Virus record (IMG/VR): IMGVR_UViG_3300002835_000025
Strand: one strand, 5' to 3'
DNA length: 64,000 nt
Origin: a virus
Positions 2,598 through 54,990 of the stretch are shown here, in pieces. Position 1 is the first letter of the stretch; each line of letters begins with the position of its first letter. The translations under genes were made by a program, and so were the position numbers. Below the pieces are notes generated by a model. The model had not been told where the DNA came from and searched no databases. It was given only the letters and a program-made list of their open reading frames with translations.

Positions 2598-2681
2598 GGA
2601 GGTCGAGCGGCATAGGTGACTGCGGCGGACTGTAAATCCGTGCCCAAAGGGCACCTGGTTCGAATCCAGGGATCTCCACCA
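2598..2681 (+). tRNA. tRNA-Tyr(GTA)
   Basis: GGAGGTC/GATCTCC-A-CCA, loop CTGTAAA, long variable arm GCCC-AAA-GGGC, TTCGAAT. Confidence 0.92.
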
Positions 2682-2701
2682 ATTACAAAGACTTATTAGG
2701 T

Positions 2702-2775
2702 GTGACTATGACGGAATTGGTAGACGTCCTCGATTGTGATTCGAGATTTTGTGGGTTCAAGTCCCACTAGTCACC
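2702..2775 (+). tRNA. tRNA-His(GTG)
   Basis: GTGACTA/TAGTCAC-C, anticodon loop TTGTGAT, TTCAAGT; CCA not encoded (CCT). Confidence 0.85.
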
Positions 2776-2792
2776 CCTAATAAGTTTTAAAT

Positions 2793-2867
2793 GCCCTATT
2801 AGTATAATGGTTATTACAATTGACTTGTAATCTTTAGATTTCGGTTCGATTCCGGAATGGGGCTCCA
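2793..2867 (+). tRNA. tRNA-Thr(TGT) with a weak anticodon stem
   Basis: GCCCTAT/ATGGGGC-T-CCA, loop CTTGTAA, TTCGATT; two T-T mismatches in the anticodon stem. Confidence 0.75.
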
Positions 2868-2925
2868 AATGTAGAAATGGTGCTAGGCGTGGCCCACGTT
2901 AAAAACAGAATACGCCCTTTATATT

Positions 2926-2999
2926 GCGGGATTAGTTTAATGATAGAACAGCAGATTTCCAATCTCCTAGTAAGGGTTTGATTCCCTTATCCCGCTCCA
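2926..2999 (+). tRNA. tRNA-Gly(TCC)
   Basis: GCGGGAT/ATCCCGC-T-CCA, loop TTTCCAA; T-loop TTTGATT variant. Confidence 0.85.
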
Positions 3000-3026
3000 A
3001 TCACTCTCCTAAGGTGACAACACTAT

Positions 3027-3054
3027 AGCTCAATTAAATATTGAGCTTTTTTTT
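3027..3054 (+). terminator. Rho-independent terminator closing the tRNA cluster
   Basis: AGCTCAAT-taaat-ATTGAGCT followed by a T run. Confidence 0.85.
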
Positions 3055-3101
3055 GTGTACAATCTGGAAAATTAGTGTATAATGGTACCATACTAACTTA
3101 A

Positions 3102-3509
3102 ATGGGAATTATAATGAATAAGAAATTATCAAAAGAAGCCAAATTGAAACATGATTGGATGGACTTTAATAAACAATACAGAGGCCAACCAAAATTGAAA
3201 ATGACGTTTGACGAATATACTAATTGGATTTTTGGTAAAACGCCTAAACCTAAAGCATCTAACAAAGCAATAATAGTTGGAAGACCTTGTTGGGCAACTA
3301 AAGATAATATACCATCATTGATAGGAAATTCTAAAGCTAGTCTAGGTAAAAATTCAATGGTAGAAAAAGTAACACAAGGAAAAATTACGGGCGATGCTGC
3401 AGAAAAAATTATTCGTAATTCCAAAAGAATAGGAATAGCATATAATAAGGGTAGTTATCAGTATATCACTGATGAAACAGATGCTAAAACTATTGGAAAA
3501 AAGATTTAA
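3102..3509 (+). CDS. Conserved T4-like hypothetical protein
   Basis: Basic ORF ending in an AYNKGSYQYI motif; early promoter upstream. Confidence 0.7.
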   Translation: MGIIMNKKLSKEAKLKHDWMDFNKQYRGQPKLKMTFDEYTNWIFGKTPKPKASNKAIIVGRPCWATKDNIPSLIGNSKASLGKNSMVEKVTQGKITGDAAEKIIRNSKRIGIAYNKGSYQYITDETDAKTIGKKI

Positions 3510-3517
3510 GGACATAT

Positions 3518-3808
3518 ATGTTGTGCATTTCAGATCAAATAGTTTCAATGGTTACACTCTTCTTCTCATCGTTTTTCATAATAATGTTATTAGGAGTTCA
3601 ATCACAATTAGTCAAAAATAAGGAAGTACTGCCGTCATTCTGTACAGCATTAATGGTAGGTTCTTTACAATTATTCTTATACAAAGCAACACCAAATGCT
3701 GGACTAGCAGAATCTGCATGTTATATCATTGGAGGTGCTTTAGGATTAGTTTCATCAATCTATGTTCATAATCTATGGCTAAAAATAACCGGACAAACTG
3801 AAAAATAA
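3518..3808 (+). CDS. Small membrane protein
   Basis: Three hydrophobic segments. Confidence 0.6.
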   Translation: MLCISDQIVSMVTLFFSSFFIIMLLGVQSQLVKNKEVLPSFCTALMVGSLQLFLYKATPNAGLAESACYIIGGALGLVSSIYVHNLWLKITGQTEK

Positions 3809-3876
3809 AGTGTACATATTCACGGAACATGTATATAATAGACTCATACTAAATAAACTTGAAGAGGAACTACATC

Positions 3877-4254
3877 ATGGCTACATATTATAAAGACGAA
3901 ATATATGTCGGAAAATTTTCATACCCAAATGGCAAACAATCGCACATAATTCTTGCTTGTAAAGAAACTGAATATTCTGAAACTTGGAAAACTTGCATTG
4001 ATAGACCATTGATACTAACAGGAACATTAGATGAAGAACGTCATTATGACTATCGTTTACCAACTATTGAAGAATGGGATTTCATTTTTGACACTCTTCC
4101 AGAAGAAGAATTTTCATTAGGAGCTCATTGGTCGAGTACTAAATACCTATATGACCAAATATGGGGAAGATCTACAATGGGAATTAGTTATGGACCAATG
4201 ACAGAACTCCACATTTGTAGAAAAATTCGTACTGTTGATTTAGGAGCTGAATAA
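3877..4254 (+). CDS. Hypothetical early protein
   Basis: Promoter plus GAGG RBS before ATG 3877; YRLPTIEE motif. Confidence 0.65.
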   Translation: MATYYKDEIYVGKFSYPNGKQSHIILACKETEYSETWKTCIDRPLILTGTLDEERHYDYRLPTIEEWDFIFDTLPEEEFSLGAHWSSTKYLYDQIWGRSTMGISYGPMTELHICRKIRTVDLGAE

Positions 4255-4700
4255 TGAGAATTGAAGACTTTCCAGAAATTATTGAAGTTCAGGATTATTT
4301 TAGTGGTAATTATTTTACTGAACATAAAAATATTTTGTCCAATACTACTTATCGTGAACTTGAACCTAAAAGTGGTTACACCTTAACCATTAAGAACAAT
4401 AATGATTATGAAGAACTAGTAAAAGAATCTAATTTATTTCAATTCTATCATGCAAACGAATATCTTGGAGCTTGGTCATATTATAAAGCACAATTGCCAA
4501 TTTATATTGAAGGCAACTTTACCGATGTTCTATATGAAGATAAGATAAAATTCGAACAGGAATATGGCATCAAATTAGTAACTGGAGTTGTTGATCGATT
4601 CTATAGTGGAAATTATTGCAATGCTGGTAATGTGCAATTTCCATATCGCCTTTACATTTATGAAGATTATGAATTAGGAGACTACAAAAATGATTACTAA
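4254..4700 (+). CDS. Hypothetical protein
   Basis: 148-aa ORF coupled to the upstream stop. Confidence 0.65.
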   Translation: MRIEDFPEIIEVQDYFSGNYFTEHKNILSNTTYRELEPKSGYTLTIKNNNDYEELVKESNLFQFYHANEYLGAWSYYKAQLPIYIEGNFTDVLYEDKIKFEQEYGIKLVTGVVDRFYSGNYCNAGNVQFPYRLYIYEDYELGDYKNDY

Positions 4701-4964
4701 TACTACGATGATTGCTGCCATTATTATCTTTACAATTATCATTATGGAATTTTACGATGACAACTTCCGTTGAGATTTACCCATATTGGGCTCGATATAT
4801 AGCAAAGGATGCTGATGGACAATGGAACTGTTTTGAATATTCACCAACATATGATGGTATAAAATGGACTTCGCCATATAAGACAAAACGGATGAAAATT
4901 AAGAATGTTAACACCGTGGACCCGGAAAAATCTTATACGGTTCTACCTCAACGAGGAAGATGAT

Positions 4965-5369
4965 ATGAGTTTAGCGTTTTCAGATGACTATGACAGAGGA
5001 GCAAGAATGACTCAATTTGAATATGATCAGAAATATGTTTCAAAATTAAATGATGTAAAAGCATCGCAAACAGCTACTACTGGTGGAAGAAAATTTGATG
5101 GTGGTAAACCAGAGTTTGGTCTTATTCCACCATTAGCACTTACTGAAACTGCCAGAGTAATGACTTATGGTGCTCATAAATATGAACCTGATAACTGGAT
5201 TCATGTACCAGATGCTAAACGCAGATATTTTAATGCTGCTCAAAGACACCAATGGGAATATCGTGAAGGTGAGGAATTAGATTCCGAATCTCAACTTCAT
5301 CATATTGCTCATGCTATCTGCAATTTAATGTTCCTTTATGAACATGTAGTAAAATATTCAAAGGAATAA
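4965..5369 (+). CDS. dATP/dGTP diphosphohydrolase-like (DUF5664-type) protein
   Basis: GRKFDGGKP..LIPP, YGAHKY..DNW, LDSESQLHHIAHAICN motifs; GAGG RBS before 4965. Confidence 0.75.
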   Translation: MSLAFSDDYDRGARMTQFEYDQKYVSKLNDVKASQTATTGGRKFDGGKPEFGLIPPLALTETARVMTYGAHKYEPDNWIHVPDAKRRYFNAAQRHQWEYREGEELDSESQLHHIAHAICNLMFLYEHVVKYSKE

Positions 5370-5426
5370 TGTTTAAAATTTAAGCAAACTGTGATATAAT
5401 ATCATTTTATTAATTATGGAGTTATT

Positions 5427-6089
5427 ATGAAACTTAGCAAAGACACGTTATCTGTATTAAAAAACTATAGTAGTATTAATCAAAATATTTTATTTTCTCC
5501 TGGAAATATTCTAAAAACCAGAACAATCCAAAACACTCTATTATCAACAGCAACAGTATCTGACACATTCCCTATTGAATTTGGCATTTACGATCTATCA
5601 GAGTTCCTTAGTGTATTATCATTATTTCAAAATCCTGAATTAGAATTTAATGAAAAATATGTTAAAATCTTTGAAGAAAATAATTCCATAAAATATTATG
5701 CTGCTGATGAATCGGTTCTTGAAGTTCCAAAAAAGGACATCAATTTTCCAGAAGCAGAGATTCAGTTGTTACTCACTGCTGAAAATTTATCACTTATCAG
5801 TAAAACTGCATCAGTATTAAAAGCGTCTGATGTGTCATTTGTTGGTCAAGATGGTCAAGTCAAAATTGTAGTTGCTGATAAGAAAAATGACACTTCAAAT
5901 TCTTTTGAATTGGAACTTGGTAATACAGACTTAGAATTCAAAGTTAATGTTAAAGTTGACATGCTAAAATTTATCCCAGGAGAATATCAAGTTTCTATTT
6001 CTTCTAAAAGAGTATCAAGATTCTCTTCAACAACATCTGATTTAGTCTATTATGTCGGTATCGAGGCAGATTCTACTTTTAATATCTAA
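5427..6089 (+). CDS. 45: Sliding clamp gp45
   Basis: MKLSKDTLSVLKNYSSINQNI, FGIYDLSEFL; lies before the clamp loader. Confidence 0.96.
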   Translation: MKLSKDTLSVLKNYSSINQNILFSPGNILKTRTIQNTLLSTATVSDTFPIEFGIYDLSEFLSVLSLFQNPELEFNEKYVKIFEENNSIKYYAADESVLEVPKKDINFPEAEIQLLLTAENLSLISKTASVLKASDVSFVGQDGQVKIVVADKKNDTSNSFELELGNTDLEFKVNVKVDMLKFIPGEYQVSISSKRVSRFSSTTSDLVYYVGIEADSTFNI

Positions 6090-6104
6090 TAGGAACTTTA
6101 TATA

Positions 6105-7055
6105 ATGAACACTATTGACAATCAATTCTTATGGGTAGAAAAATACCGTCCTCAAAATATAGAAGACTGCATTCTTCCTGAATCTCTCAAAACAACATTT
6201 AAAGAATTTGTAAGCAAATCACAACTTCCAAATTTTCTTTTATCAGGAACTGCTGGCGTTGGTAAAACAACAATAGCAAAAGCTCTATGTAATGAAATTG
6301 GTGCTGAATATATTGTCATTAATGGATCAGATGAAGGAAGATCCATTGAAGTATTAAGAGGTACTATTCGAAGTTTTGCTTCAACTGTATCTCTTACTGA
6401 TTCTAAAAAGGTAATCATTATTGATGAAGCTGATTATATGAATCCCAATTCTGTCCAACCGGCTTTGCGTTCATTTATGGAAGAATTCTCTGCTAATTGC
6501 AGATTCATATTCACTTGTAATTTCAAAGATAGAATTATTGAACCACTTCACAGCAGATGCACATGCATTGAGTTTAAAATTTCTAATAAAGATAAACAAT
6601 TAATAGCTGCATTATTCTTTAAAAGAGTAACACAAATCTTAAAATCAGAAAATGTTGAATTTGATGCTAAGGTTGTATCTGAATTGGTCATCAAACACTT
6701 TCCAGATTATAGAAGAATATTGAATGAACTTCAAAGGTATTCTGTATCAGGTAAAATTGACGTTGGATTATTAGTGAATCTTTCTGATGATAATTTTTCT
6801 AATCTTGTTAAATTATTAAAAGAAAAGAACTTCACTGAGGTTCGTAAATGGGTAAGCAGTAATACTGACTCGGAACCTAGTGAAATTTATAGAAAACTAT
6901 ATGACAAAGCAATTGACTATTTGGAACAACCTAGCATTCCTGAAATTGTTCTAATTCTTGGCGAATGGGGATATCGTAATGCATTTGCCATTGACCGTGA
7001 AATTAACACAATGGCATGTTTGACTGAAATTATGGCAACCTGTAGGTTTAAATAG
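6105..7055 (+). CDS. 44: Clamp loader large subunit gp44
   Basis: LWVEKYRP, GVGKTT, IIDEAD, SRC motifs. Confidence 0.97.
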   Translation: MNTIDNQFLWVEKYRPQNIEDCILPESLKTTFKEFVSKSQLPNFLLSGTAGVGKTTIAKALCNEIGAEYIVINGSDEGRSIEVLRGTIRSFASTVSLTDSKKVIIIDEADYMNPNSVQPALRSFMEEFSANCRFIFTCNFKDRIIEPLHSRCTCIEFKISNKDKQLIAALFFKRVTQILKSENVEFDAKVVSELVIKHFPDYRRILNELQRYSVSGKIDVGLLVNLSDDNFSNLVKLLKEKNFTEVRKWVSSNTDSEPSEIYRKLYDKAIDYLEQPSIPEIVLILGEWGYRNAFAIDREINTMACLTEIMATCRFK

Positions 7056-7063
7056 GATATATT

Positions 7064-7447
7064 ATGACTAAGCCATTTGAATTTGTTAATGCTATAAATT
7101 ATACTAAGGAATACTTGTTTAATGACCCACAATCTGAAAAGGATTACAATTCATTTTTGGTAAATAGAAGTCTGTCATACTTTGTTGATACTATCATGTT
7201 TGCTTCAGAAATGAATAGGTATCCTCAATTGACAAACAAACAACAATTCGACTATTATATAAATATCATTGCAAGGAAAAAGCGTTTCTCGAAGTGGGCT
7301 GAAAAGGAATCAAAATCTGATAACTTAGATGCGGTCTGTTCATATTATGGATATTCTAAACAGAGAGGTAAAGATGTTTTGGATATGCTAAGCAGTGAAC
7401 AGATCAAGTTCATAAAAGAGAAACAATATACAGGTGGTCGAAAATGA
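7064..7447 (+). CDS. 62: Clamp loader small subunit gp62
   Basis: YNSFLVNRSLSY, KKRFSKW, YYGYS; synteny. Confidence 0.93.
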   Translation: MTKPFEFVNAINYTKEYLFNDPQSEKDYNSFLVNRSLSYFVDTIMFASEMNRYPQLTNKQQFDYYINIIARKKRFSKWAEKESKSDNLDAVCSYYGYSKQRGKDVLDMLSSEQIKFIKEKQYTGGRK

Positions 7448-7860
7448 TTGAAAACTATGACAACTTGACCGATAATATGTTAGAGATTGCCATACCTGAG
7501 CCAGACAGTTTTTTAAAAATAAAAGAAACTCTGTCACGTATTGGGGTTGCTTCAAAAAAGGACAATATATTATATCAGTCATGCCACATACTACACAAAC
7601 AAGGAAGATATTATTTAGTTCATTTCAAAGAATTATTTGCTCTTGACGGAAAGGAATCTAATATTTCTCAAGATGATATCGAAAGAAGAAATGCAATTGC
7701 TATATTATTACAAGATTGGAATCTGTTAAAAGTTATTGATGCTAATAAAGTTATTAAGAGAGCTTCATTATCGTCTATTAAAATTTTAACATACCAAGAA
7801 AAATCAGAATGGACATTAACCCCGAAATATAATATTGGTGTTAGAAAACAATCCAAATAA
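7444..7860 (+). CDS. regA: Translational repressor RegA
   Basis: FLKIKETLSRIG, LYQSCHILHKQGRYYLVHFKELF. Confidence 0.97.
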   Translation: MIENYDNLTDNMLEIAIPEPDSFLKIKETLSRIGVASKKDNILYQSCHILHKQGRYYLVHFKELFALDGKESNISQDDIERRNAIAILLQDWNLLKVIDANKVIKRASLSSIKILTYQEKSEWTLTPKYNIGVRKQSK

Positions 7861-7920
7861 TGTTTACAATTCGTTATTTGTATGATATAATTATTTTTTA
7901 TTAACAAACTGGAATATAAT

Positions 7921-8109
7921 ATGACACAACCTTTAGATGAAAATACTACAGAATTGAACATCGTCTTAACAATCACTGATGTAAATAAATTACTAGCAAT
8001 TCTAGGCAAATATCCATTCGATGAAATTAATGCGTTAATTGGTAAAATTTATGCTCAAGGCGAGGCACAGATTAAAGAACTATTGCCGACAGAAGAGCCA
8101 ACAGAATAA
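7921..8109 (+). CDS. Hypothetical protein
   Basis: 62-aa ORF after a promoter. Confidence 0.6.
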   Translation: MTQPLDENTTELNIVLTITDVNKLLAILGKYPFDEINALIGKIYAQGEAQIKELLPTEEPTE

Positions 8110-8114
8110 GTTGT

Positions 8115-8207
8115 TTGTTCTGATGGGGAACATTAAAACTCATCAAAAACAAATCACGTCTTCGGAGTGATTATTACTAAAATCTCGCTGAAAAGGAGAA
8201 CATTATG
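8115..8207 (+). promoter_or_regulatory. ROSE-like RNA thermometer in the hsp20 5' UTR
   Basis: Two upstream hairpins (one with a cTTCGg loop), then TCTCGCT-gaaa-AGGAGA pairing the UYGCU motif with the Shine-Dalgarno. Confidence 0.6.
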
Positions 8208-8657
8208 TTAGCAAATCAATTAGTTCAATTCGATAAAGAACTCTTAAAATTCTTTGTAGGATTTGATACACATTCAGAAGCAATTAGAAAAGCCACTGAA
8301 AATCTTAAAAATCAGAAGTCTTATCCTCCGTATAATATTAAAACGGTTGGTGATAATTCTTACATAATTGAGATTGCTGTTGCTGGTTTTAGCCGTAATG
8401 ATATTGATGTGGAACTTTATAACAGAACACTGACTGTGACTGGTAAATCCGCGGAACCAGATGATAGTGTTTACTTGTATAAAGGATTGGCATCAAGAGC
8501 ATTTACTAGAACTTTTACAATTGCTGAAAATGTGGTAGTATCTGAAATTAAGTTAAACGATGGTATGTTGCGTATCTTTCTTGACCATATCATCCCAGAG
8601 GAACTTCGTCCTCGTAAACTTGAAATCAATACTTCCAATAATTTGTTGTTAGGTTAA
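8205..8657 (+). CDS. hsp20: Small heat shock protein (Hsp20/IbpA family)
   Basis: YPPYNI, IEIAVAGF, YLYKGLASRAFTRTF, DGMLRI. Confidence 0.95.
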   Translation: MLANQLVQFDKELLKFFVGFDTHSEAIRKATENLKNQKSYPPYNIKTVGDNSYIIEIAVAGFSRNDIDVELYNRTLTVTGKSAEPDDSVYLYKGLASRAFTRTFTIAENVVVSEIKLNDGMLRIFLDHIIPEELRPRKLEINTSNNLLLG

Positions 8658-8707: not shown

Positions 8708-9013
8708 ATGACACAAACAATACTCGCATTTCGTTTATTATCAGGCGATGAAGTTATTTCTATCATTGCTTCAGAAACTGATACAACTTACGAACTAGAA
8801 AACCCCGCTCAAATTGCAACTCAAATGACAGAATCTGGCAAGATTGGTCTTATGATTGCCGCTTTCCAACCTTATGCAGAATCAAATATCACTCTTAATA
8901 AACATGCTATTGCTTCTATTTGTATTCCTGCCCAAGGTCTTGCTGATGAATATAAATCAAAGTTTGAAGAGTCTCTAATCATCACTCCTCCTAATCAAAA
9001 AATTATCGTTTAG
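8708..9013 (+). CDS. Conserved T4-like hypothetical protein (small beta-barrel)
   Basis: RLLSGDEVI...LENP motif; typical neighbor of hsp20. Confidence 0.7.
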   Translation: MTQTILAFRLLSGDEVISIIASETDTTYELENPAQIATQMTESGKIGLMIAAFQPYAESNITLNKHAIASICIPAQGLADEYKSKFEESLIITPPNQKIIV

Positions 9014-9027
9014 ATTGGAGAAATAGA

Positions 9028-9588
9028 ATGCTAGTATTGGATATTGAAACTCTTGATATTGAATCAACTGCCGTAGTATTATCAGCATCAATGGTATACT
9101 TTGACGAAAATGATACTTGGTCAAGTTTATTGAAAAAGGCAGTATTTGTAAAATTTGATGCAAAAGAACAAGTTCAAAAATATAAAAGAACTATATCTAA
9201 AGACACTCTGTCATGGTGGAATACTCAATCTGATGCAGCAAGAGAAGTATCATTTAAACCAAAGCCTGATGATCTTACTGTAGAACAAGGAATTTCTTTA
9301 TTAAGAGAATACTTAAGTAATGATACTAATCCTACTAAGATTATTTGGGTAAGAGGAAGTCTTGATCAAATGGTAATTGATAGTTTATGCCGATCTGCAA
9401 AATTAGAACCATTAGCAAGATATAACCATTACAGAGACATTAGGACTGGAATTGATATACTATCAGAATCTTCTGTAAACGGATACTGCAAAGTCAATTG
9501 CGAAGACTTTAACATTGACTGGGTAGATAAACATAATCCAATACACGACATTGCTTACGACGCATTGCAACTGCTTCACCCAAACTAA
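9028..9588 (+). CDS. dexA: DEDDh 3'-5' exonuclease, DexA-like
   Basis: LDIETL, WWNTQS, RDIRT, HNPIHDIAYD. Confidence 0.8.
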   Translation: MLVLDIETLDIESTAVVLSASMVYFDENDTWSSLLKKAVFVKFDAKEQVQKYKRTISKDTLSWWNTQSDAAREVSFKPKPDDLTVEQGISLLREYLSNDTNPTKIIWVRGSLDQMVIDSLCRSAKLEPLARYNHYRDIRTGIDILSESSVNGYCKVNCEDFNIDWVDKHNPIHDIAYDALQLLHPN

Positions 9589-9645
9589 TATGTACACAGA
9601 GGGCTATTAATGATATAATAGCCCTTTTTATATCATGAGGAAAAA

Positions 9646-10632
9646 ATGATGATTAACGAATTTTATACAAATGCAATCCAATATGGTAATAAAATACTTG
9701 TCAGATCTATTAGAGATGGATTGCCACAAAAGCAGAAAATCGATTTTTACCCTACCTTATATACCACATCAGGAAAATCTTCAGAATCTTCTTCATTCAA
9801 GTCTTTACATGGAGTAGAATTATACGAAATAAAACCGGGTACCATAAATGATTGCAAAGATTTCATAAAAACTTACGAAAATGCGATGCCTGTGTATGGA
9901 CAAACAAACTATGCATATCAATATATTGAAGAAAATTACAAAACCGATATAAAGTTTGATTCTGACTTATTAAAAATCATTGCTATCGATATAGAAACTG
10001 CAAATGAAGAATCTGGTTTTCCTCATCCAAAATACGCTAATGAAGAAATTCTACTAATTACTGTCAGAGATCTTAAAACTAAATCTACAAAAATATTTGG
10101 ATCTAGACCTTATGAAGGAAAACATAAAGCAGATTTTGTCCTTTGTAAAGACGAAAATCAATTACTTCAGCAATTTGTGACTCATTGGCAACAAAGAATC
10201 CCTGACATTATTACGGGTTGGAATATTGACAACTTTGATATTCCGTACATTATTAATAGACTACTAAGAACTATAGGAGAAGATTATGTTAAAAAACTTT
10301 CTCCATGGAATATAGTCAATGAACGTTCTAAAAAGGTTAATAACGTAGAACAACAGACTTATGAAATACTCGGTGTGTCATCTTTAGACTATATTGAACT
10401 CTATAAGAAATATTCTAAAAAAAACCAGGAGTCATACAGACTAGACCATATAGCATTTGTAGAACTTGGTGAAAGAAAACTGGATCATAGCCAATGGAAT
10501 ACTTTCAAGGAATTTTACTCTGGTGAATATGACACTCATAAAATTAGGCCAGAGTATGAAAATTCGGATACAAAGTCTTATAGAAGAACACAGATAAAAT
10601 TAGAGTTAATTAGACGCGGACTAACAGTTTAA
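9646..10632 (+). CDS. 43: DNA polymerase B gp43, N-terminal fragment (N domain plus most of the exonuclease domain)
   Basis: ExoI DIET, Exo[23 protein letters not shown]; stops before ExoIII and ends in a novel basic tail. Confidence 0.93.
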
Positions 10633-11470
10633 ATTGTTTACAGTTTGTGCCATGCCATCTATTATAATTAAGAGGATCAAAACTGCAGTTGCAATATTCA
10701 CAAAGTATTGATTCTTTCTTTTTCATAGGTGGCAATTCTATTTCAGATTTGAATACATTTAAAGAACTGTCAAATATTGTCCAAGTTTTAGAAACTAGTC
10801 TTGTATTTCCTAGTGTTAAATTATATATTTTCTGTGGGCTTATTTTTGTTAATTGATGAAATTCTGATATAGTCATATCAAATACATCTTTAGTTATTAC
10901 ATTTTTAAATTTGAAAATGTCTTTTTTAAACCAAGGTTTACTTTGCTTTGCAATTTTACCAAAATTAATATTTTTACATTCAATAGAACATAATTTCTGG
11001 CTAATATTATGTGTAATTATTTCTTTATTACATACGGAACAATTTATAGTGATATACTTTCTGTTCGATAGCGCTTTCAATGATCTATTCTGTTTAATTA
11101 TTTCTTTAGTACACGATCTAGAACAACAATTACTGCATCCGCTAAATTCTTTATAACAATATTTGCAAATTTTCATTGGCTTAAGTTTTTTAACTCCAGT
11201 ATTTCCATCTCCGCCATCAGTCTTATTTAGGAGTATACCTGTCCCAATGTCTTTTCGCCCATGCCATCTTATCATTCTTCTTTCTATTGCTAATGCTCCA
11301 ACTTCAGATAAATTCGTTTCTAGGAATATTATCTTTGTTCTATCCTTTGGCACAGATATTCCTTTATGAATATCATAGGCTCTAGTATTCTTACCTTTTC
11401 CAATGTAATATGGTGTTCCGTCTGACTTTCTAATATATGCATACACGTAATATATAAGATCGCTGGTCAT
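10610..11470 (-). CDS. Free-standing GIY-YIG homing endonuclease with Cys-rich Zn modules
   Basis: [25 protein letters not shown], CxxC repeats, C-terminal RWHGTNCK; minus-strand TATAAATA at 11554-11561. Confidence 0.88.
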
Positions 11471-11620
11471 GATAGTTCCTTGAATTGTCTTAAGAATGAT
11501 TAGTGCTACTGGAGCCTAGGAACTCGCGAGTAGCTTTTTTAGTTTGTACAATCTATTTATAATATCAATAGATGTTTACTTTTTGTTGTTATTGTGATAT
11601 TATATACATTTATTATAGGA
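11462..11620. promoter_or_regulatory. Conserved endonuclease leader plus back-to-back late (-) and early (+) promoters, copy 1
   Basis: About 100-bp similarity to 54838-54990, with a covarying stem GCTACT/AGTAGC. Confidence 0.75.
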
Positions 11621-11627
11621 GAACATT

Positions 11628-13307
11628 ATGTTTAGTGATATATCAGATAAAGATTTATTAGATGAATATTATAAATTAGATAAAGAAATAAAGCAAGAAT
11701 CATGGACTACATATACTGATTACAATTATCATGACGTATTGCTTATTGATAAATTGGATGAGCAATTAAAGTTTATCGAGTTACAACTCACAATGGCATA
11801 TACTGCCAAGATTAATTATCAAGAAGCATTTAGTCCGGTTAGACTATGGGACTCTACAATCTATCACTATCTTATTAATAAGAACATTATTATTCCTAAC
11901 ATGGACAGAAATGTTAAAGGAGAATTAATGGGTGCCTATGTAAAGACTCCTATTACTGGCATTCATAAATGGATCGCGTCATTCGATTTGGCATCATTAT
12001 ATCCTCATCTAATAATGCAATACAATATCAGCCCAGAAACATTAACAACTACGAAATTGTCATTCACTATTGATAATTTATTAGACAAAATTGAACTTCC
12101 AAAAGTTGATTATGCAATTACTGCTAATGGTTGGTGCTATTCTAAAGATAAGCGCGGATTCCTACCAGAGTTGATGGACACTATGTATGCAAATCGTTCT
12201 ATGCATAAGAAACAAATGTTAAAGCATGAACAGCAATACGAGAGTGATAAGAACAATAAGGAACTATCAAAAGAAATTTCAAGACTTAATAACTTGCAAC
12301 TAGCTCTAAAGGAAACACTAAACAGTGCATACGGAGCTATTGGAATGCCATACTTCCGATATTATGATTTGAGAATGGCAGAATCCATAACATCATCTGG
12401 ACAGTTCTCGATAAAATGGATAGCAAACAGAATTAACAAATATTTGAATTCAGCTTTGAAAACAAATAACACCGATTATATTATTGCTTCGGATACCGAT
12501 TCTGTGTACGTGTCATTGGAAACTTTGGTCGAAACGACTCAAGGTGAAAAATCGACAGAAGATAAAATCAAATTCATGGATTCATTCTGCGGCAAAGTCT
12601 TAACTCCGTTAATAGAAAAATCATATATCGAGTTAGCAGAGTACATGAATGCCTATGAACAAAAGATGCAAATGAAACGAGAAGTACTTGCTGATAAAGG
12701 TTTGTGGACGGCTAAGAAAAGATATGCATTAAGAGTTCATAACTCTGAAGGTGTTCAGTATGATAAACCAAAAATGAAAATTATGGGCATTGAGATTGTA
12801 AAGTCATCGACTCCAACTGCCATAAGAGAAAAATTGAAGTCAACTATTGATATTATTTTTAATGACACTAATTTGGACCTCATAAGATTCATTGAAGACA
12901 CTAGACAGGAATTTAAAACATTAGCAGTAGAAGATATTGCTATTCCAAGTACAGTTAATGGAATGATAAAATTTTCTAATGACAAAACTATTTATTCTAA
13001 AGGCTGTCCGATTTATGTCAGAGGAGGTTTATTATACAATAAAGTTGTTAAAGATATGAAACTTGATCAGAAGTATCCTTTAATAGGCGCAGGAGACAAA
13101 TTAAAATATGTTTATTTGAAACTCCCAAATACTATTAAAGAAGATGTTATTGGATTCCCTACTGAATTACCAATGGAATTCGGATTACATAAGTATATTG
13201 ACTACAACACTCAGTTTGAAAAAGTGTTCTTGAATCCATTAGAAAAGATTGTCGATGCTATTGGTTGGAATTTAAAAGAGCAATCGACTTTAGATGCATT
13301 CTTCTAA
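11628..13307 (+). CDS. 43: DNA polymerase B gp43, C-terminal fragment (ExoIII plus polymerase domains)
   Basis: YNYHD (ExoIII), FDLASLYP, K..LNSAYG, SDTDS, KKRYAL, C-terminal clamp-binding TLDAFF; own promoter and AGGAG RBS. Confidence 0.95.
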   Translation: MFSDISDKDLLDEYYKLDKEIKQESWTTYTDYNYHDVLLIDKLDEQLKFIELQLTMAYTAKINYQEAFSPVRLWDSTIYHYLINKNIIIPNMDRNVKGELMGAYVKTPITGIHKWIASFDLASLYPHLIMQYNISPETLTTTKLSFTIDNLLDKIELPKVDYAITANGWCYSKDKRGFLPELMDTMYANRSMHKKQMLKHEQQYESDKNNKELSKEISRLNNLQLALKETLNSAYGAIGMPYFRYYDLRMAESITSSGQFSIKWIANRINKYLNSALKTNNTDYIIASDTDSVYVSLETLVETTQGEKSTEDKIKFMDSFCGKVLTPLIEKSYIELAEYMNAYEQKMQMKREVLADKGLWTAKKRYALRVHNSEGVQYDKPKMKIMGIEIVKSSTPTAIREKLKSTIDIIFNDTNLDLIRFIEDTRQEFKTLAVEDIAIPSTVNGMIKFSNDKTIYSKGCPIYVRGGLLYNKVVKDMKLDQKYPLIGAGDKLKYVYLKLPNTIKEDVIGFPTELPMEFGLHKYIDYNTQFEKVFLNPLEKIVDAIGWNLKEQSTLDAFF

Positions 13308-13367
13308 TGTGTACATTATAATCGATATAGTGTATAATATTATTTTATTATTTAAAAAGGAAATATT

Positions 13368-14231
13368 ATGTCAGAATTATTAGCAAAAATTAAAAAGACT
13401 TGTACCATTAAAGATTCTTCTGTATTGAGTGCATCAAAATATTTTAATAAAAAGGATATGATTCAAACTCAGATTCCTGCATTAAATGTTGCATTATCTG
13501 GAGAATTGGATGGAGGTTTTGTTCCTGGTCTGACATTATGGTGTGGTCCAAGTAAACATTTCAAATCGATGTTTTCATTAATCATGGCTAAAGCTTACAT
13601 GGACAAATATCCTGAAGCAATTATGATTTTTTATGATTGCGAATTTGGAACTCCAACTGCGTATTTTAGTTCTCTTAATATTGATACAAATAGAATTCTT
13701 CATGTTCCTGTAATGAATATGGAAGAATTCAAATTTGATGTCATTAAACAATTAGAAGGACTTGATAGAGGAGATAGGGTAATTTTTATCATTGACTCTC
13801 TAGGTAATATGTCTTCCAAAAAAGAAATGGAAGATGCTATTGATGGAAAATCAGTACAAGATATGTCTAGAGCTAAACAAATGAAATCAATTTTTAGAAT
13901 GATTACGCCATATCTTAATAGATTAGACATTCCAATGGTAGCAGTTAACCACATCTATATGTGTGGAACAGAAGAAATGGAAGTTATTTCGGATAATGGT
14001 GCAATTAGTCTAAAAAATATCACGCCGGGAATGTTAGTGGAAACTACCAATGGACTTCAACCCGTCACTAATGTATTTAAGTATGAGGACGCGTATGTGT
14101 CTGATATTGAAATGGAAGACGGCACAATACTATCATTTACACAAGGACATAGATTCATGGTAAATGGAGAATGGGTCTTTGTAGAGGATCTTCAAGAAGG
14201 AATGGAACTTGATATAAAACCCATCTCGTAA
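13368..14231 (+). CDS. uvsX: UvsX recombinase N-extein (aa 1-198) fused to the split-intein N-fragment (Cys199-287)
   Basis: GPSKHFKS, FYDCEFG, IDSLGN, DMSRAK, then CGTEEMEV...FTQGHRF (intein blocks A and B). Confidence 0.92.
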   Translation: MSELLAKIKKTCTIKDSSVLSASKYFNKKDMIQTQIPALNVALSGELDGGFVPGLTLWCGPSKHFKSMFSLIMAKAYMDKYPEAIMIFYDCEFGTPTAYFSSLNIDTNRILHVPVMNMEEFKFDVIKQLEGLDRGDRVIFIIDSLGNMSSKKEMEDAIDGKSVQDMSRAKQMKSIFRMITPYLNRLDIPMVAVNHIYMCGTEEMEVISDNGAISLKNITPGMLVETTNGLQPVTNVFKYEDAYVSDIEMEDGTILSFTQGHRFMVNGEWVFVEDLQEGMELDIKPIS

Positions 14232-14275
14232 TTGCAATAAATAATTCATATATACATTTTAAAGGGTTTTATATG
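14212..14275 (+). promoter_or_regulatory. RBS/start-sequestering hairpin with an internal late promoter for the HNH gene
   Basis: Perfect 11-bp inverted repeat ATATAAAACCC (14212-14222) / GGGTTTTATAT (14264-14274) covering the ATG; AATAAATA at 14236-14243 lies between the arms. Confidence 0.75.
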
Positions 14276-15073
14276 AATTATTTGAAACATTACGAATTAT
14301 TAATTACTAGAGCAAAATCTAGAAGTAAAATTTTAGAGTATATTGAGAAACATCATATAGTTCCAAAGTGTTTAGGTGGAAATAATGATATTGACAATAT
14401 TGCTGAACTAACACCAGAGGAACATTATTTTGCCCATCAACTACTAGCAAAAATATATCCAGATAATTGCGGGTTAATTAGTGCATGTAAATTGATGGGA
14501 GGAAGTATTTCGGGAAAAAGAAGTAATAATAAAATCTATGGGTGGATAAGAAGAAAATCTAATATATTGATGGGACAGTCAATTAGGAAACTTCATATTG
14601 ATAAAAGAGATATGAAGTCTATATCATTAGGATTTGAAAATTATATTGATATGTCTAAGTCTATATGGGATTTATTCATAACCCATAAATTACATTATAC
14701 TTCTATAGAAGAAAAATTTGGGGTTAGTCGGCATTTTATAAAAAGATCTTTAGAAGTATATGCTAAAGATAATGACTTATTAGATGAGTTAGCTCAAGGT
14801 TATTATGATCTTAAGTCAAGCAGTCAAAAACTAGGCAGATCTAAATTTACTGAAGATCAAGAAAGCAATAGAATAACAGCATTAAAAAATATTGACTATG
14901 CCGCTAGATCATTAAAAACCGGTTCTAGAAAAGGATCATTAAATCCAACATTTGGTAAAACTTGGTCTCATATTAAAATGATGTGCCCATATTGTAATAA
15001 AGAAGTCGGCGGAAAGCGTTGGCATTTTGATAACTGCAGGAGTAAAAATGAAAATCAAATCAATAAAATTTAA
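14273..15073 (+). CDS. HNH homing endonuclease (MobE-like) between the split-intein halves
   Basis: EKHHIVPKCLGG.N..DN...LTPEEHYFAHQLL; C-terminal CPYC...RWHFDNC. Confidence 0.9.
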   Translation: MNYLKHYELLITRAKSRSKILEYIEKHHIVPKCLGGNNDIDNIAELTPEEHYFAHQLLAKIYPDNCGLISACKLMGGSISGKRSNNKIYGWIRRKSNILMGQSIRKLHIDKRDMKSISLGFENYIDMSKSIWDLFITHKLHYTSIEEKFGVSRHFIKRSLEVYAKDNDLLDELAQGYYDLKSSSQKLGRSKFTEDQESNRITALKNIDYAARSLKTGSRKGSLNPTFGKTWSHIKMMCPYCNKEVGGKRWHFDNCRSKNENQINKI

Positions 15074-15656
15074 TACACGTAAGGCAGATGTTTACGACAT
15101 TGAAACTCCTACACACGATTATATATTAAAAAACGGAATAATTTCTCATAATACACAGGAGCTTTACAGCAAACCTGTAGTTTCTGGTGGAACTGGTGTT
15201 TACTTATCTGCTGATAATATTTTTATTCTTGGAAGACAACAAGAAAAAGAAGGAACAGAAGTCATTGGTTATAACTTTATCATCAATGTAGAAAAATCAA
15301 GATATGTAAGAGAAAAATCAAAAATTCCAATTAGTGTTCTATTTGAAGGTGGTGTTTCTAAATGGTCAGGATTATTAGAAATGGCATTAGAATCTGGTCA
15401 TGTCATTAAGCCAAATAATGGTTGGTATTCTAGAGTAGATAAAATTACTGGTGAGCTTGAAGATAAACGATATAGATTAAAAGATACTATCAATAAAGAA
15501 TTCTGGCTTCCTATATTAGCAAAAAAGGATTTCCAACAATGGATAAAAGAATCTTATAAATTGACAGAATCAGAAATGCTATCTGATTCAGTAATTGAAT
15601 CAGAATTATCAAAGGTTGAATTAGAGGATTTGGAAAAAATTTCTGAATTAGTTTAA
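15048..15656 (+). CDS. uvsX: Split-intein C-fragment (35 aa) fused to the UvsX C-extein
   Basis: CAGGAG RBS; MKIKSIK...VYDIET..HDYILKNGIISHN|T, then TQELYSKPVVSGGTG and VEKSRYVREKSK. Confidence 0.92.
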   Translation: MKIKSIKFNTRKADVYDIETPTHDYILKNGIISHNTQELYSKPVVSGGTGVYLSADNIFILGRQQEKEGTEVIGYNFIINVEKSRYVREKSKIPISVLFEGGVSKWSGLLEMALESGHVIKPNNGWYSRVDKITGELEDKRYRLKDTINKEFWLPILAKKDFQQWIKESYKLTESEMLSDSVIESELSKVELEDLEKISELV

Positions 15657-15725
15657 CTGTGTTGAGAGTGTATGCCAGTGTGTACACTCTCTATTTTTAT
15701 GATATAATAACATTTTGAGAATATT

Positions 15726-16016
15726 ATGACTACTAAATTCGAAACATATAACTACTTTGATGCTTCTGGAACAGAAGTTGTTGCATTAGAAATCCTAGAA
15801 GATAAATTCAAAGGCTCTATCTTTTCATTTGGAAAAGTAGAATTTCCAGACCCTAACGAACCAATCCTTAATTTTGAATATACTCTTCATCAAGGATATA
15901 TCTCTGATGATAATAAGGAAGATTTCAAAAATTGCTTGGGTGATATATTAGTACAAATTTTAGAAGAATCTCTTAAAGACAAAACTACTGTTTTTAAAGG
16001 TGGCATTGATGAGTAA
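15726..16016 (+). CDS. 40: gp40-like head vertex assembly chaperone
   Basis: Lies between uvsX and gp41; LGDILVQIL C-terminal helix. Confidence 0.6.
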   Translation: MTTKFETYNYFDASGTEVVALEILEDKFKGSIFSFGKVEFPDPNEPILNFEYTLHQGYISDDNKEDFKNCLGDILVQILEESLKDKTTVFKGGIDE

Positions 16017-54075: not shown

Positions 54076-54846
54076 CTAAAAATATTGTTTAAATTCAGGA
54101 TATAATCTAGAAATACATGGTTTAGTATAAGTCTTTCTAGTTTCAATAATCGATAAGAATTTTGGTTGAGGAATTCCTTTCTTTGCTGCAGATATATTTG
54201 GTTGCTTCTTGCCTTTCTTTGTGGCGGATAATTTGTTACCAAATCCTTCTGGTTTAGGAATGCCAGTTTTTACATAAGATAATTTTGCACCAAATCCTTC
54301 TGGTTTAGGAATGCCTTTAGTACTAGATGATAATTTTGCACCAAATCCTTCTGGTTTAGGAATTCCTTTAGTACTAGATGATAATTTTGCACCAAATCCT
54401 TCTGGTTTAGGAATTCCTTTATTTTTAGAAATTCCTCTATTTCCAGGTTTTCCTTTATTATGAGCCGGTTTTCCTTTTGCTGAAGCAGATCGTTTAGCAT
54501 TAGATTCTTCTGATTGTTTCTTGCCAGAAGTAGTAAATCTGATTTTACTACCGTGATGACATCTTCTGTTAAGCATCAATGGATTTTTAAGTTCTTGGTA
54601 TATTAGAAACTGTTCTAGGTCGTATGCCTCGAGTGGATCAACAAATTCCTGGATGATGGTATAGTTAAATTCTTGGAATCTTGGTTCAACTGTTTTTGAT
54701 GATGTAAAATAGTCAATACCTAAATCCTGATTTGCTGGGACTTTATTGGCTTTACGAAATCCAAAATAAAATTCGCCAGTAGTTGGATTGTCTAGTCTAT
54801 AGACATAGGATAATACTGGTTCTTGATATATACTTGTGCTGGTCAT
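54076..54846 (-). CDS. Free-standing GIY-YIG-like homing endonuclease with tandem NUMOD3-like repeats
   Basis: YVYRL.N..TGEFYFG, YFTSSK, LN; 4 x 17-aa KGIPKPEGFGAKLS repeats (51 bp each). Confidence 0.8.
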   Translation of the reverse strand: MTSTSIYQEPVLSYVYRLDNPTTGEFYFGFRKANKVPANQDLGIDYFTSSKTVEPRFQEFNYTIIQEFVDPLEAYDLEQFLIYQELKNPLMLNRRCHHGSKIRFTTSGKKQSEESNAKRSASAKGKPAHNKGKPGNRGISKNKGIPKPEGFGAKLSSSTKGIPKPEGFGAKLSSSTKGIPKPEGFGAKLSYVKTGIPKPEGFGNKLSATKKGKKQPNISAAKKGIPQPKFLSIIETRKTYTKPCISRLYPEFKQYF

Positions 54847-54990
54847 GATAGTTCCTTGAATTATTGATAGAATGATTAGTGCTAGTGGGATGTAGGAGTC
54901 CGCGACTAGCTTTTTGTTTGTATGATCTATTTATAAGATTTAGATGTTGACATTTTTAGAATAGATGATATAATAGATTTTTATCATGAG
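54838..54990. promoter_or_regulatory. Conserved endonuclease leader plus back-to-back promoters, copy 2
   Basis: Similar to 11462-11620; stem GCTAGT/ACTAGC; TATAAATA on the minus strand at 54928-54935; GTTGAC..TATAAT on the plus strand. Confidence 0.75.

Follow-up and report, generated by a model that had tools for sequence, protein, structure and literature searches.

The window analysed here is the whole 64,000-nucleotide (nt) stretch of viral DNA held as IMG/VR record IMGVR_UViG_3300002835_000025, in which the gene of the DNA polymerase of a T4-like aquatic phage, gp43, is split in two. Positions 9646-13307 contain three open reading frames (ORFs): gp43A on the plus strand (9646-10632, 328 amino acids (aa)), an antisense endonuclease gene on the minus strand (10610-11470, 286 aa) and gp43B on the plus strand (11628-13307, 559 aa). 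The gap of 995 nt between gp43A and gp43B holds the antisense gene, whose 3' end extends over the final 23 nt of gp43A. Pfam searches found DNA_pol_B_exo1 (PF03104, 1.2e-26) on gp43A and DNA_pol_B (PF00136, 2e-29) on gp43B. All the motifs of a T4-type family B polymerase are present. ExoI (DxE; DIET, 9988-9999) and ExoII (Nx2-3FD; 10216-10248) are on gp43A, and ExoIII (Yx3D; YNYHD, 11721-11735) is on gp43B together with polymerase motifs A (SFDLASLYP, 11979-12005), B (KETLNSAYG, 12309-12335) and C (DTDS, 12492-12503), all of them on the plus strand. The C-terminal end of gp43B, ...LDAFF, resembles a clamp-binding sequence. The motifs of the proofreading site are divided between two polypeptides, and where the gp43 of T4 and RB69 is a single polypeptide, the enzyme encoded here is a two-subunit variant.

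The position of the break was determined by alignment with contiguous cyanophage gp43 proteins and with a contiguous gp43 of 827 aa (P0121), retrieved by protein search from a 143,284-bp contig. Homology extends in gp43A to FYSG (residues 290-293) and resumes in gp43B at W26. On RB69 gp43 the break falls between E314/S315 and H317, 6-9 residues before Y323 of ExoIII (Y323/D327). The gp43A core, which comprises the N-terminal and exonuclease domain up to FYSG (9646-10524, plus strand), has 1 mismatch in 291 aa to P0121; the gp43B core, with ExoIII, the polymerase motifs and the thumb (11703-13307, plus strand), has 0 mismatches in 534 aa. P0121 itself matches RB69 gp43 at E 1e-127. Two peptides encoded by an insert on the plus strand are absent from P0121: a C-terminal tail on gp43A (10525-10632; 35 aa at 10525-10629, plus the stop codon) and an N-terminal head of 25 aa on gp43B (11628-11702). 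The alignments, the Pfam matches and the motif positions bear out the original prediction, made from the DNA alone, that gp43 is split inside its exonuclease domain. It had also placed an antisense GIY-YIG gene between the halves, given gp43B its own promoter and ribosome binding site and seen no intein at either break. These statements agree with the ORF at 10610-11470 and its GIY-YIG-type residues, with a promoter-like site (11575-11603), an AGGAG and a start codon of its own in front of gp43B, and with the lack of any Hint or intein Pfam hit on gp43A or gp43B. The head was described as acidic, about 25 aa long and situated just before ExoIII, and it has 25 aa with a net charge of -4 and an isoelectric point (pI) of 4.2. 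For the tail, described as basic and about 37 aa long, one correction is needed: an extra tail of 35 aa is there, but as a whole it is only mildly basic, having a net charge of +2 overall, +4 in the last 17 residues and an acidic first half.

Residues 2-292 of gp43A and 26-559 of gp43B differ from P0121 at 1 of 825 positions, in a comparison made at the protein level only. The junction in P0121 reads FKEFYSNDWTTY, and the unsplit allele is FYSND-W. With the boundaries compared as protein, the window allele is the intact gene with two codons (ND) exchanged for the insert, which consists in order of G, the 35-aa tail and a stop codon, the antisense gene, a promoter, a Shine-Dalgarno sequence with ATG, and the 25-aa head ending in ES. 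Judged from these proteins, the insert is a present/absent polymorphism between near-identical phages, and since a near-identical strain has the unsplit gene, the whole insert can be regarded as a mobile polymorphism, a point that the original prediction missed. A megablast search of 50,697 GenBank phages gave no match. The unsplit allele was found on 3 contigs with 6 member sequences and the split allele on 2 contigs with 3 members. No co-conversion tract was seen at the junction in the window/P0121 pair. In addition, a protein of 79 aa (P0127) has an unrelated N-terminus of 48 residues followed by a stretch 100% identical to residues 12-42 of the window gp43B, and may represent a third allele, or another insert, at the junction in a close relative.

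Relatives of the antisense gene product number 190 in IMG/VR, and eight residues (Y8, Y10, Y21, Y22, G24, R30, E63 and N82) were invariant in 34 endonuclease relatives. The endonuclease profile matched the GIY-YIG protein 9u75 of the PDB at E 3.5e-4, and a Pfam scan of the 286-aa protein gave no match. From its sequence the protein appears to be a GIY-YIG homing endonuclease, with modest statistical support. Its gene is free-standing, and the gene whose two parts lie on either side of it is contiguous in relatives. In the leader of the endonuclease gene (11471-11561, minus strand) there are a motif of the T4 late-promoter type, TATAAATA (11554-11561), a stem region and, ahead of the start codon, the conserved block AGAATGATTAG. 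Facing gp43B, a predicted outward sigma-70-like promoter (11575-11603, plus strand; TTTACT-17-TATTAT with an upstream TG) precedes the Shine-Dalgarno sequence AGGAG (11617-11621, plus strand), which lies 6 nt before the gp43B ATG. Over the 157 nt that separate the starts of the endonuclease and gp43B genes, the sequence aligns with the corresponding region of another split gp43 locus, L195, and also with the upstream region of an unrelated endonuclease gene elsewhere in the window. This second gene, also of GIY-YIG type and on the minus strand (54076-54846, in a region extending over 54076-54990), encodes a protein with no similarity to the gp43-locus endonuclease. For the outward promoter, L195 has the equivalent TTGACT-17-TATAAT, and TTGACA-17-TATAAT stands next to the second endonuclease gene. 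The second gene, the gp43-locus gene and L195 have in common some 150 nt of leader upstream, as well as both the late and the outward promoter, and in these alignments the leader and promoter look like a portable expression module swapped between endonuclease genes.

The tail and head had been taken as novel, which did not hold, as many divergent gp43 genes from metagenomes have them as a conserved module. A tail of this kind was found on N-terminal gp43 fragments of 322-345 aa (P0002-P0005, P0014, P0023, P0100, P0062, L195 and L058), which are 41-66% identical to the window gp43A. The ending Y.RTQ[IM]K.EL[IQ][RK]RG[LI] is common to all of these tails except that of P0062, a divergent one with the ending ...LRDKLQGNK. 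Conservation in the tail is highest in the basic C-terminal helix. When the N-terminal 50 residues of gp43B were used in an exhaustive search, six C-terminal fragments proved to start with the same head (P0128, P0129 and P0131-P0134), and it is also kept in L195 and L058; its consensus is M[FY]..[ILF]SD[ED]EL..EY.KLD.EIKQ.S, followed by W. When profile hidden Markov models (HMMs) of the tail and head were run against the 15,154 ORFs of all fetched loci, only gp43 junctions were matched (E 1e-9 to 1e-4), and the search turned up L058 as a further split locus. The tail or head alone found no match in 50,697 GenBank phage records. By these comparisons no fewer than 10 divergent metagenomic lineages of gp43 have the tail and head in conserved form, and such conservation in gp43 proteins only 41-66% identical overall points to selection on the peptides. 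The last 17 tail residues have a net charge of +2 to +5 in 9 of 10 tails and of 0 in L195. All heads are acidic (pI 4.1-4.9), and a hydrophobic stripe with a spacing of 3-4 residues runs along the head (L10, Y14, L17 and I21).

Two other origins of these peptides were considered and rejected. MAFFT placed the tail on the ExoIII helix, as if it were a decayed duplicate, but its similarity to gp43B (score 19) was no better than that of shuffled sequences (mean 21.9, p 0.79), and the Y-x3-D of the window tail is not kept in other tails. An origin of the tail and head as copies of the peptides at a second gp43 split site, at the tip of the fingers, was not supported either, only the ending ...[KR]RG[LI] being in common (tail profile E ~3); the ending common to the tails of both sites may be a convergent helix cap. 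A stretch at about 20580 of the window, ...AAELKKRGIKVQEDVMDE..., inside an unrelated ORF, matched a loose tail pattern; the tail HMM gave no match to it at E up to 10, and the pattern match is probably due to chance. One of the head-bearing fragments, P0134 (477 aa, gp43B type), has an apparent intein-like insertion near its C-terminal end.

The genomic context was examined for L195, L196 and L058, which were found by a DNA pattern scan and among endonuclease loci. L195 and L058 have the same layout as the window, with an antisense GIY-YIG gene between the halves. Their endonucleases are 57% identical over the full length, and the window endonuclease matches them over residues 1-165 only (46%). 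In L196 the split, the tail, the head and the Shine-Dalgarno sequence with ATG are kept around a 54-nt spacer without an endonuclease gene; in this locus the split seems to have outlasted the endonuclease. In P0010 and P0011 the tail and head are fused in frame through a turn of 3-5 residues, about as short as would be expected for a helix-turn-helix, and the fused form P0011 is without the tail end ...ELIRRGL. The L058 locus of an IMG/VR phage (reverse strand, 2647-8505) is further fragmented: its gp43 gene, interrupted both at the exonuclease site and at the fingers site by an antisense GIY-YIG gene in each case, comprises three or more pieces, of which the last continues beyond the DTDS motif into Hint-like intein sequence.

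T4-type phages are known to have introns and a 50-nt bypass, and gp43A, the 54-nt spacer and gp43B of L196 lie in one frame, so that restoration of the gene by splicing of a group I intron or by a ribosomal bypass like that of gene 60 was considered, along with the split being an artefact of assembly. The spacer of L196, however, has two further in-frame stop codons. Rfam found no intron at E up to 10 over positions 9000-16000, and the gene between the halves runs antisense over about 1 kb. The Shine-Dalgarno sequence and ATG of gp43B are conserved, and an M[FY] start is found in all relatives. A group I intron with an internal endonuclease gene was rejected, since no Rfam ribozyme was found and the endonuclease gene is antisense. 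Misassembly, which would have undone the original prediction, is excluded by the same architecture on the independent contigs L195 and L058 and by the gp43A protein on 2 contigs. A gene restored at the RNA or ribosome level, or broken only in the assembly, is scarcely credible in our judgement.

A recent and harmful split that cripples the polymerase or its proofreading, with the phage surviving transiently or by complementation, would fit the presence of the unsplit allele in a near-identical genome and its occurrence on more contigs (3 vs 2). The catalytic motifs, however, are all intact, and the split with its conserved peptides persists in lineages 41-66% identical, one of them without the endonuclease gene. 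The split gp43 of Aeromonas phage 25 is active as well, according to the account of Petrov 2010 given in PMC2988022. We consider a harmful insertion very improbable.

An intein explanation finds some support in the neighbouring gene. In the same genome uvsX (13368-15656) is also fractured: its N-part ends in a Cys-started Hint-like N-intein with weak Pfam Intein_splicing/Vint matches, next comes a free-standing gene for an HNH homing endonuclease (14273-15073; PHROG 655 at 8e-45), and a short C-intein ending ...GIISHN|TQELYSK is fused to the remaining UvsX. If the gp43 tail and head were degenerate remnants of a split intein, the halves could be ligated by protein trans-splicing; serines flank both junctions (FY|SG... 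and ...QE|SW). A minimal Hint fold takes about 130 residues. The tail and head amount to 60, under half of that, and the Pfam scan that was weakly positive on UvsX gave no Hint or intein signal on gp43A or gp43B. The head ends in QES, where a C-intein normally has a terminal Asn (compare SHN in the phage's own uvsX C-intein), and in the fused variants the two peptides form a permanent insertion in frame. Crona et al. raised such an origin for the tails of the split NrdA of phage Aeh1 (PMC3045599). For gp43 we regard trans-splicing as highly improbable. Since the gp43 peptides contain no intein motifs, rejoining must be non-covalent, and one genome would have one broken gene mended by a split intein (uvsX) and another by non-covalent tails (gp43).

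To follow the distribution of split genes, the first ~290 residues of 82 rows were placed on a maximum likelihood tree (quick IQ-TREE search). The split forms occur at scattered points of this tree, and 5 of 10 have an unsplit sister with Shimodaira-Hasegawa-like approximate likelihood ratio test (SH-aLRT) support of 96-100; the split/unsplit pairs are window/P0121, P0002/P0125, P0003/P0124, P0004/P0007 and P0014/P0072. P0004 and P0007 are 94% identical, and 14 of their 17 differences lie within the last 30 residues before the junction. This tract looks like co-conversion of flanking sequence, as expected from homing. With the present/absent polymorphism and the scattered tree positions, it lends indirect support to an endonuclease that would cut the insert-free allele and favour its own inheritance. 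When IMG/VR was scanned with an alignment of gp43A fragments, nearly all matches were contiguous genes.

Single-chain AlphaFold models of the fused P0011 and of L196 gp43A plus spacer plus gp43B were used to stand in for the heterodimer. For L196 the stretch was read with NCBI table 4, which yields one chain whose natural linker has 19 residues; the reading serves the modelling alone, and no read-through is claimed. The P0011 model had a mean predicted local distance difference test (pLDDT) score of 84.5, with the head and ExoIII forming one helix (residues 304-340). The L196 model (pLDDT 89.6) gave template modelling (TM) scores of 0.81-0.83 to RB69 gp43. Its tail forms a 19-residue helix (residues 303-321, pLDDT ~50-55), and its head helix is continuous from residue 353 with the ExoIII helix, the pLDDT rising from 73 to 95. 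The tail and head are both predicted to be helical in these models, which together with their conservation gives indirect support to a role of the peptides in assembly or activity.

We interpret the locus as a mobile gene-splitting insert that spreads by homing, gp43A and gp43B reassembling non-covalently into a complete polymerase with the tail packed on the head, and estimate the probability of this at roughly 0.7. The insert has five parts, namely the tail with its stop codon, the antisense endonuclease gene with its late promoter, the sigma-70-like promoter, the ribosome binding site with ATG, and the head. gp43A and gp43B would be translated separately and would join without a covalent link as a family B polymerase, whose composite proofreading site would take ExoI and ExoII from gp43A and ExoIII from gp43B. 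The head would lengthen the ExoIII helix on its N-terminal side; on this acidic head the tail would most likely pack in antiparallel orientation with its basic, helical end, and the added interface would offset the break. The endonuclease would drive the whole insert, tails included, into unsplit alleles through double-strand-break repair.

The tail-head contact, an electrostatic zipper in the original prediction, is plausible and inferred, the placement of the tail by AlphaFold being of low confidence (pLDDT ~45-56 in both models, 45-56 for the P0011 tail). Several further points weigh against our interpretation. The unsplit allele is known as protein and not as DNA, the whole tail is weakly basic, and the tails of L195 and L196 are net acidic. 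The native interface between gp43A and gp43B is large, with the ExoIII helix buried in the exonuclease fold, and may be sufficient alone. The tails of Aeh1 NrdA are needed for the higher-order dimer and not for the A-B heterodimer (PMC3045599); as they are dispensable for the heterodimer, the analogy is no proof of a zipper. The tails also partly cluster by host clade, and long vertical descent with repeated loss is not distinguishable from frequent horizontal gain.

The poorly placed tails in the models, the dispensable Aeh1 tails, the two net acidic tails and the fused P0011 without the basic tail end would all suit a different assembly, in which the halves join via the native gp43 interface and the unpaired tail and head are kept for folding or solubility, for protection of the end of the ExoIII helix or for docking on the body of the enzyme. 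Conservation of the tail, on the other hand, peaks at its basic C-terminal helix, the heads are uniformly acidic with a hydrophobic stripe that needs a partner, and the fused forms join tail and head by a very short turn. We favour tail-head packing and think unpaired peptides improbable.

A broader version of the mobile-insert interpretation would treat the unit of tail, stop codon, endonuclease gene with two-way promoter (where present), Shine-Dalgarno sequence with ATG, and head as a self-contained mobile element, homing among divergent polB genes with its own heterodimerisation peptides and expression signals. It would be a third general way beside self-splicing introns and inteins, and gp43 of aquatic T4-like phages would be a hotspot with at least three split sites. 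We put this forward tentatively, as an idea whose chances fall a little short of even. If it is true, a selfish endonuclease can live in an essential gene without killing it.

With two further ones seen among the proteins P0006-P0119, gp43 of aquatic T4-like phages has at least three recurrent split sites, at about 328, 423 and 487 residues. At the fingers-tip site (~480-491 aa) the tails end ...E[MI][KR][KR]RG[LI], and at the site of ~423 aa, after motif A, they end ...NNRIAELEKML. In another split locus, L180 (1632-4459), a small Vsr-like ORF lies between the gp43 halves. The gene upstream of gp43A in the window (9028-9588) encodes a protein with an Rv2179c-like 3'-5' exoribonuclease domain (PF16473, 4e-18) and is syntenic in a relative, L004.

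The principle of such a split has been published for Aeh1 NrdA, and split gp43 genes were already known in Aeromonas phages, at another site. New are the split site inside the proofreading domain, a tail and head that are conserved from lineage to lineage and also occur fused or without an endonuclease, the near-identical unsplit strain, and evidence for three or more recurrent gp43 split sites in aquatic T4-like phages. The natural series of forms (two endonucleases, none, fused and unsplit) offers a means of testing the peptides as portable assembly modules, and it bears on how homing endonucleases colonise essential genes and on whether a divided exonuclease site alters replication fidelity. 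The two short helices could also be used as a natural split-protein tag. Split gp43 genes will also confuse g43 marker-gene surveys and the automated annotation of aquatic myophages.

The closest relatives by enzyme are the split gp43 genes of Aeromonas phages. As summarised from Petrov, Ratnayaka and Karam 2010 in PMC2988022, phages 44RR and 25 have a split gp43 with a short spacer, with or without a seg-like GIY-YIG gene, and the same source, citing Petrov 2010, has the phage 25 halves co-purifying and active. On that account the same enzyme family is found in two cistrons, the 54-nt spacer of L196 resembling the intercistronic untranslated sequence (IC-UTS) form and the window the endonuclease-containing form. 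The original prediction held that the known Aeromonas split lies elsewhere, and this was confirmed in 44RR (L198), where gp43A has 498 aa and 43B has 391 aa: the cut, in the fingers, follows residue 498 and leaves a spacer of 49 nt. In the window the cut is at residue 293, between ExoII and ExoIII, and divides the proofreading site. The peptides are unrelated too, since the tail profile had no significant match on fingers-site tails. The 44RR fingers-site tail ends ...ILASRGVKLDH.

Fractured genes with split inteins and free-standing endonucleases, of which endonuclease-free alleles exist, were described by Dassa et al. 2009 (PMC2677866), and uvsX of the window is an example. Like gp43 here, they have the order N-part, endonuclease gene, C-part, in aquatic T4-like phages; unlike them, gp43 is without an intein, and its extra peptides total 60 residues without intein motifs. 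T4 topoisomerase genes 39/60 are split by mobA and offer another endonuclease-associated split of an essential enzyme; for the tail-like extensions of 39/60, an aid to assembly was suggested by Crona et al. (PMC3045599). The enzyme is a different one, and no bypass element like the gene 60 cassette is found at gp43 here.

Another close counterpart is NrdA of phage Aeh1. Its gene was reportedly found by Friedrich in 2007 to be split by the HNH endonuclease gene mobE. The tails of NrdA-a and NrdA-b that came from the mobE insertion are a basic C-terminal one (pI 10.4) and an acidic N-terminal one (pI 3.8), and they are essential for activity (PMC3045599). Oppositely charged tails from a mobile element that reassemble a split enzyme, held to be novel in the original prediction, had thus already been shown by experiment. 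In both systems a free-standing homing endonuclease gene interrupts an essential replication-related enzyme in its active-site region, each fragment is translated on its own, the C- and N-terminal tails, one basic and one acidic, arose with the insertion, and there is no splicing. As with the Aeh1 tails, those of gp43 are opposite in charge and absent from the unsplit homologue (P0121). The two differ in that Aeh1 has a ribonucleotide reductase and an HNH endonuclease, whereas here a family B polymerase is combined with an antisense GIY-YIG gene. From their one example, with unique sequences, Crona et al. 2011 predicted that similar tails would be found elsewhere, possibly as a general remedy for gene fragmentation (PMC3045599). 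The Aeh1 tails were described as a unique case; the gp43 module, known from sequence alone, recurs in many divergent phages, some of its variants being fused or free of an endonuclease, and there is an unsplit twin. The logic of Crona et al. recurs here in a replicative polymerase, inside its proofreading site.

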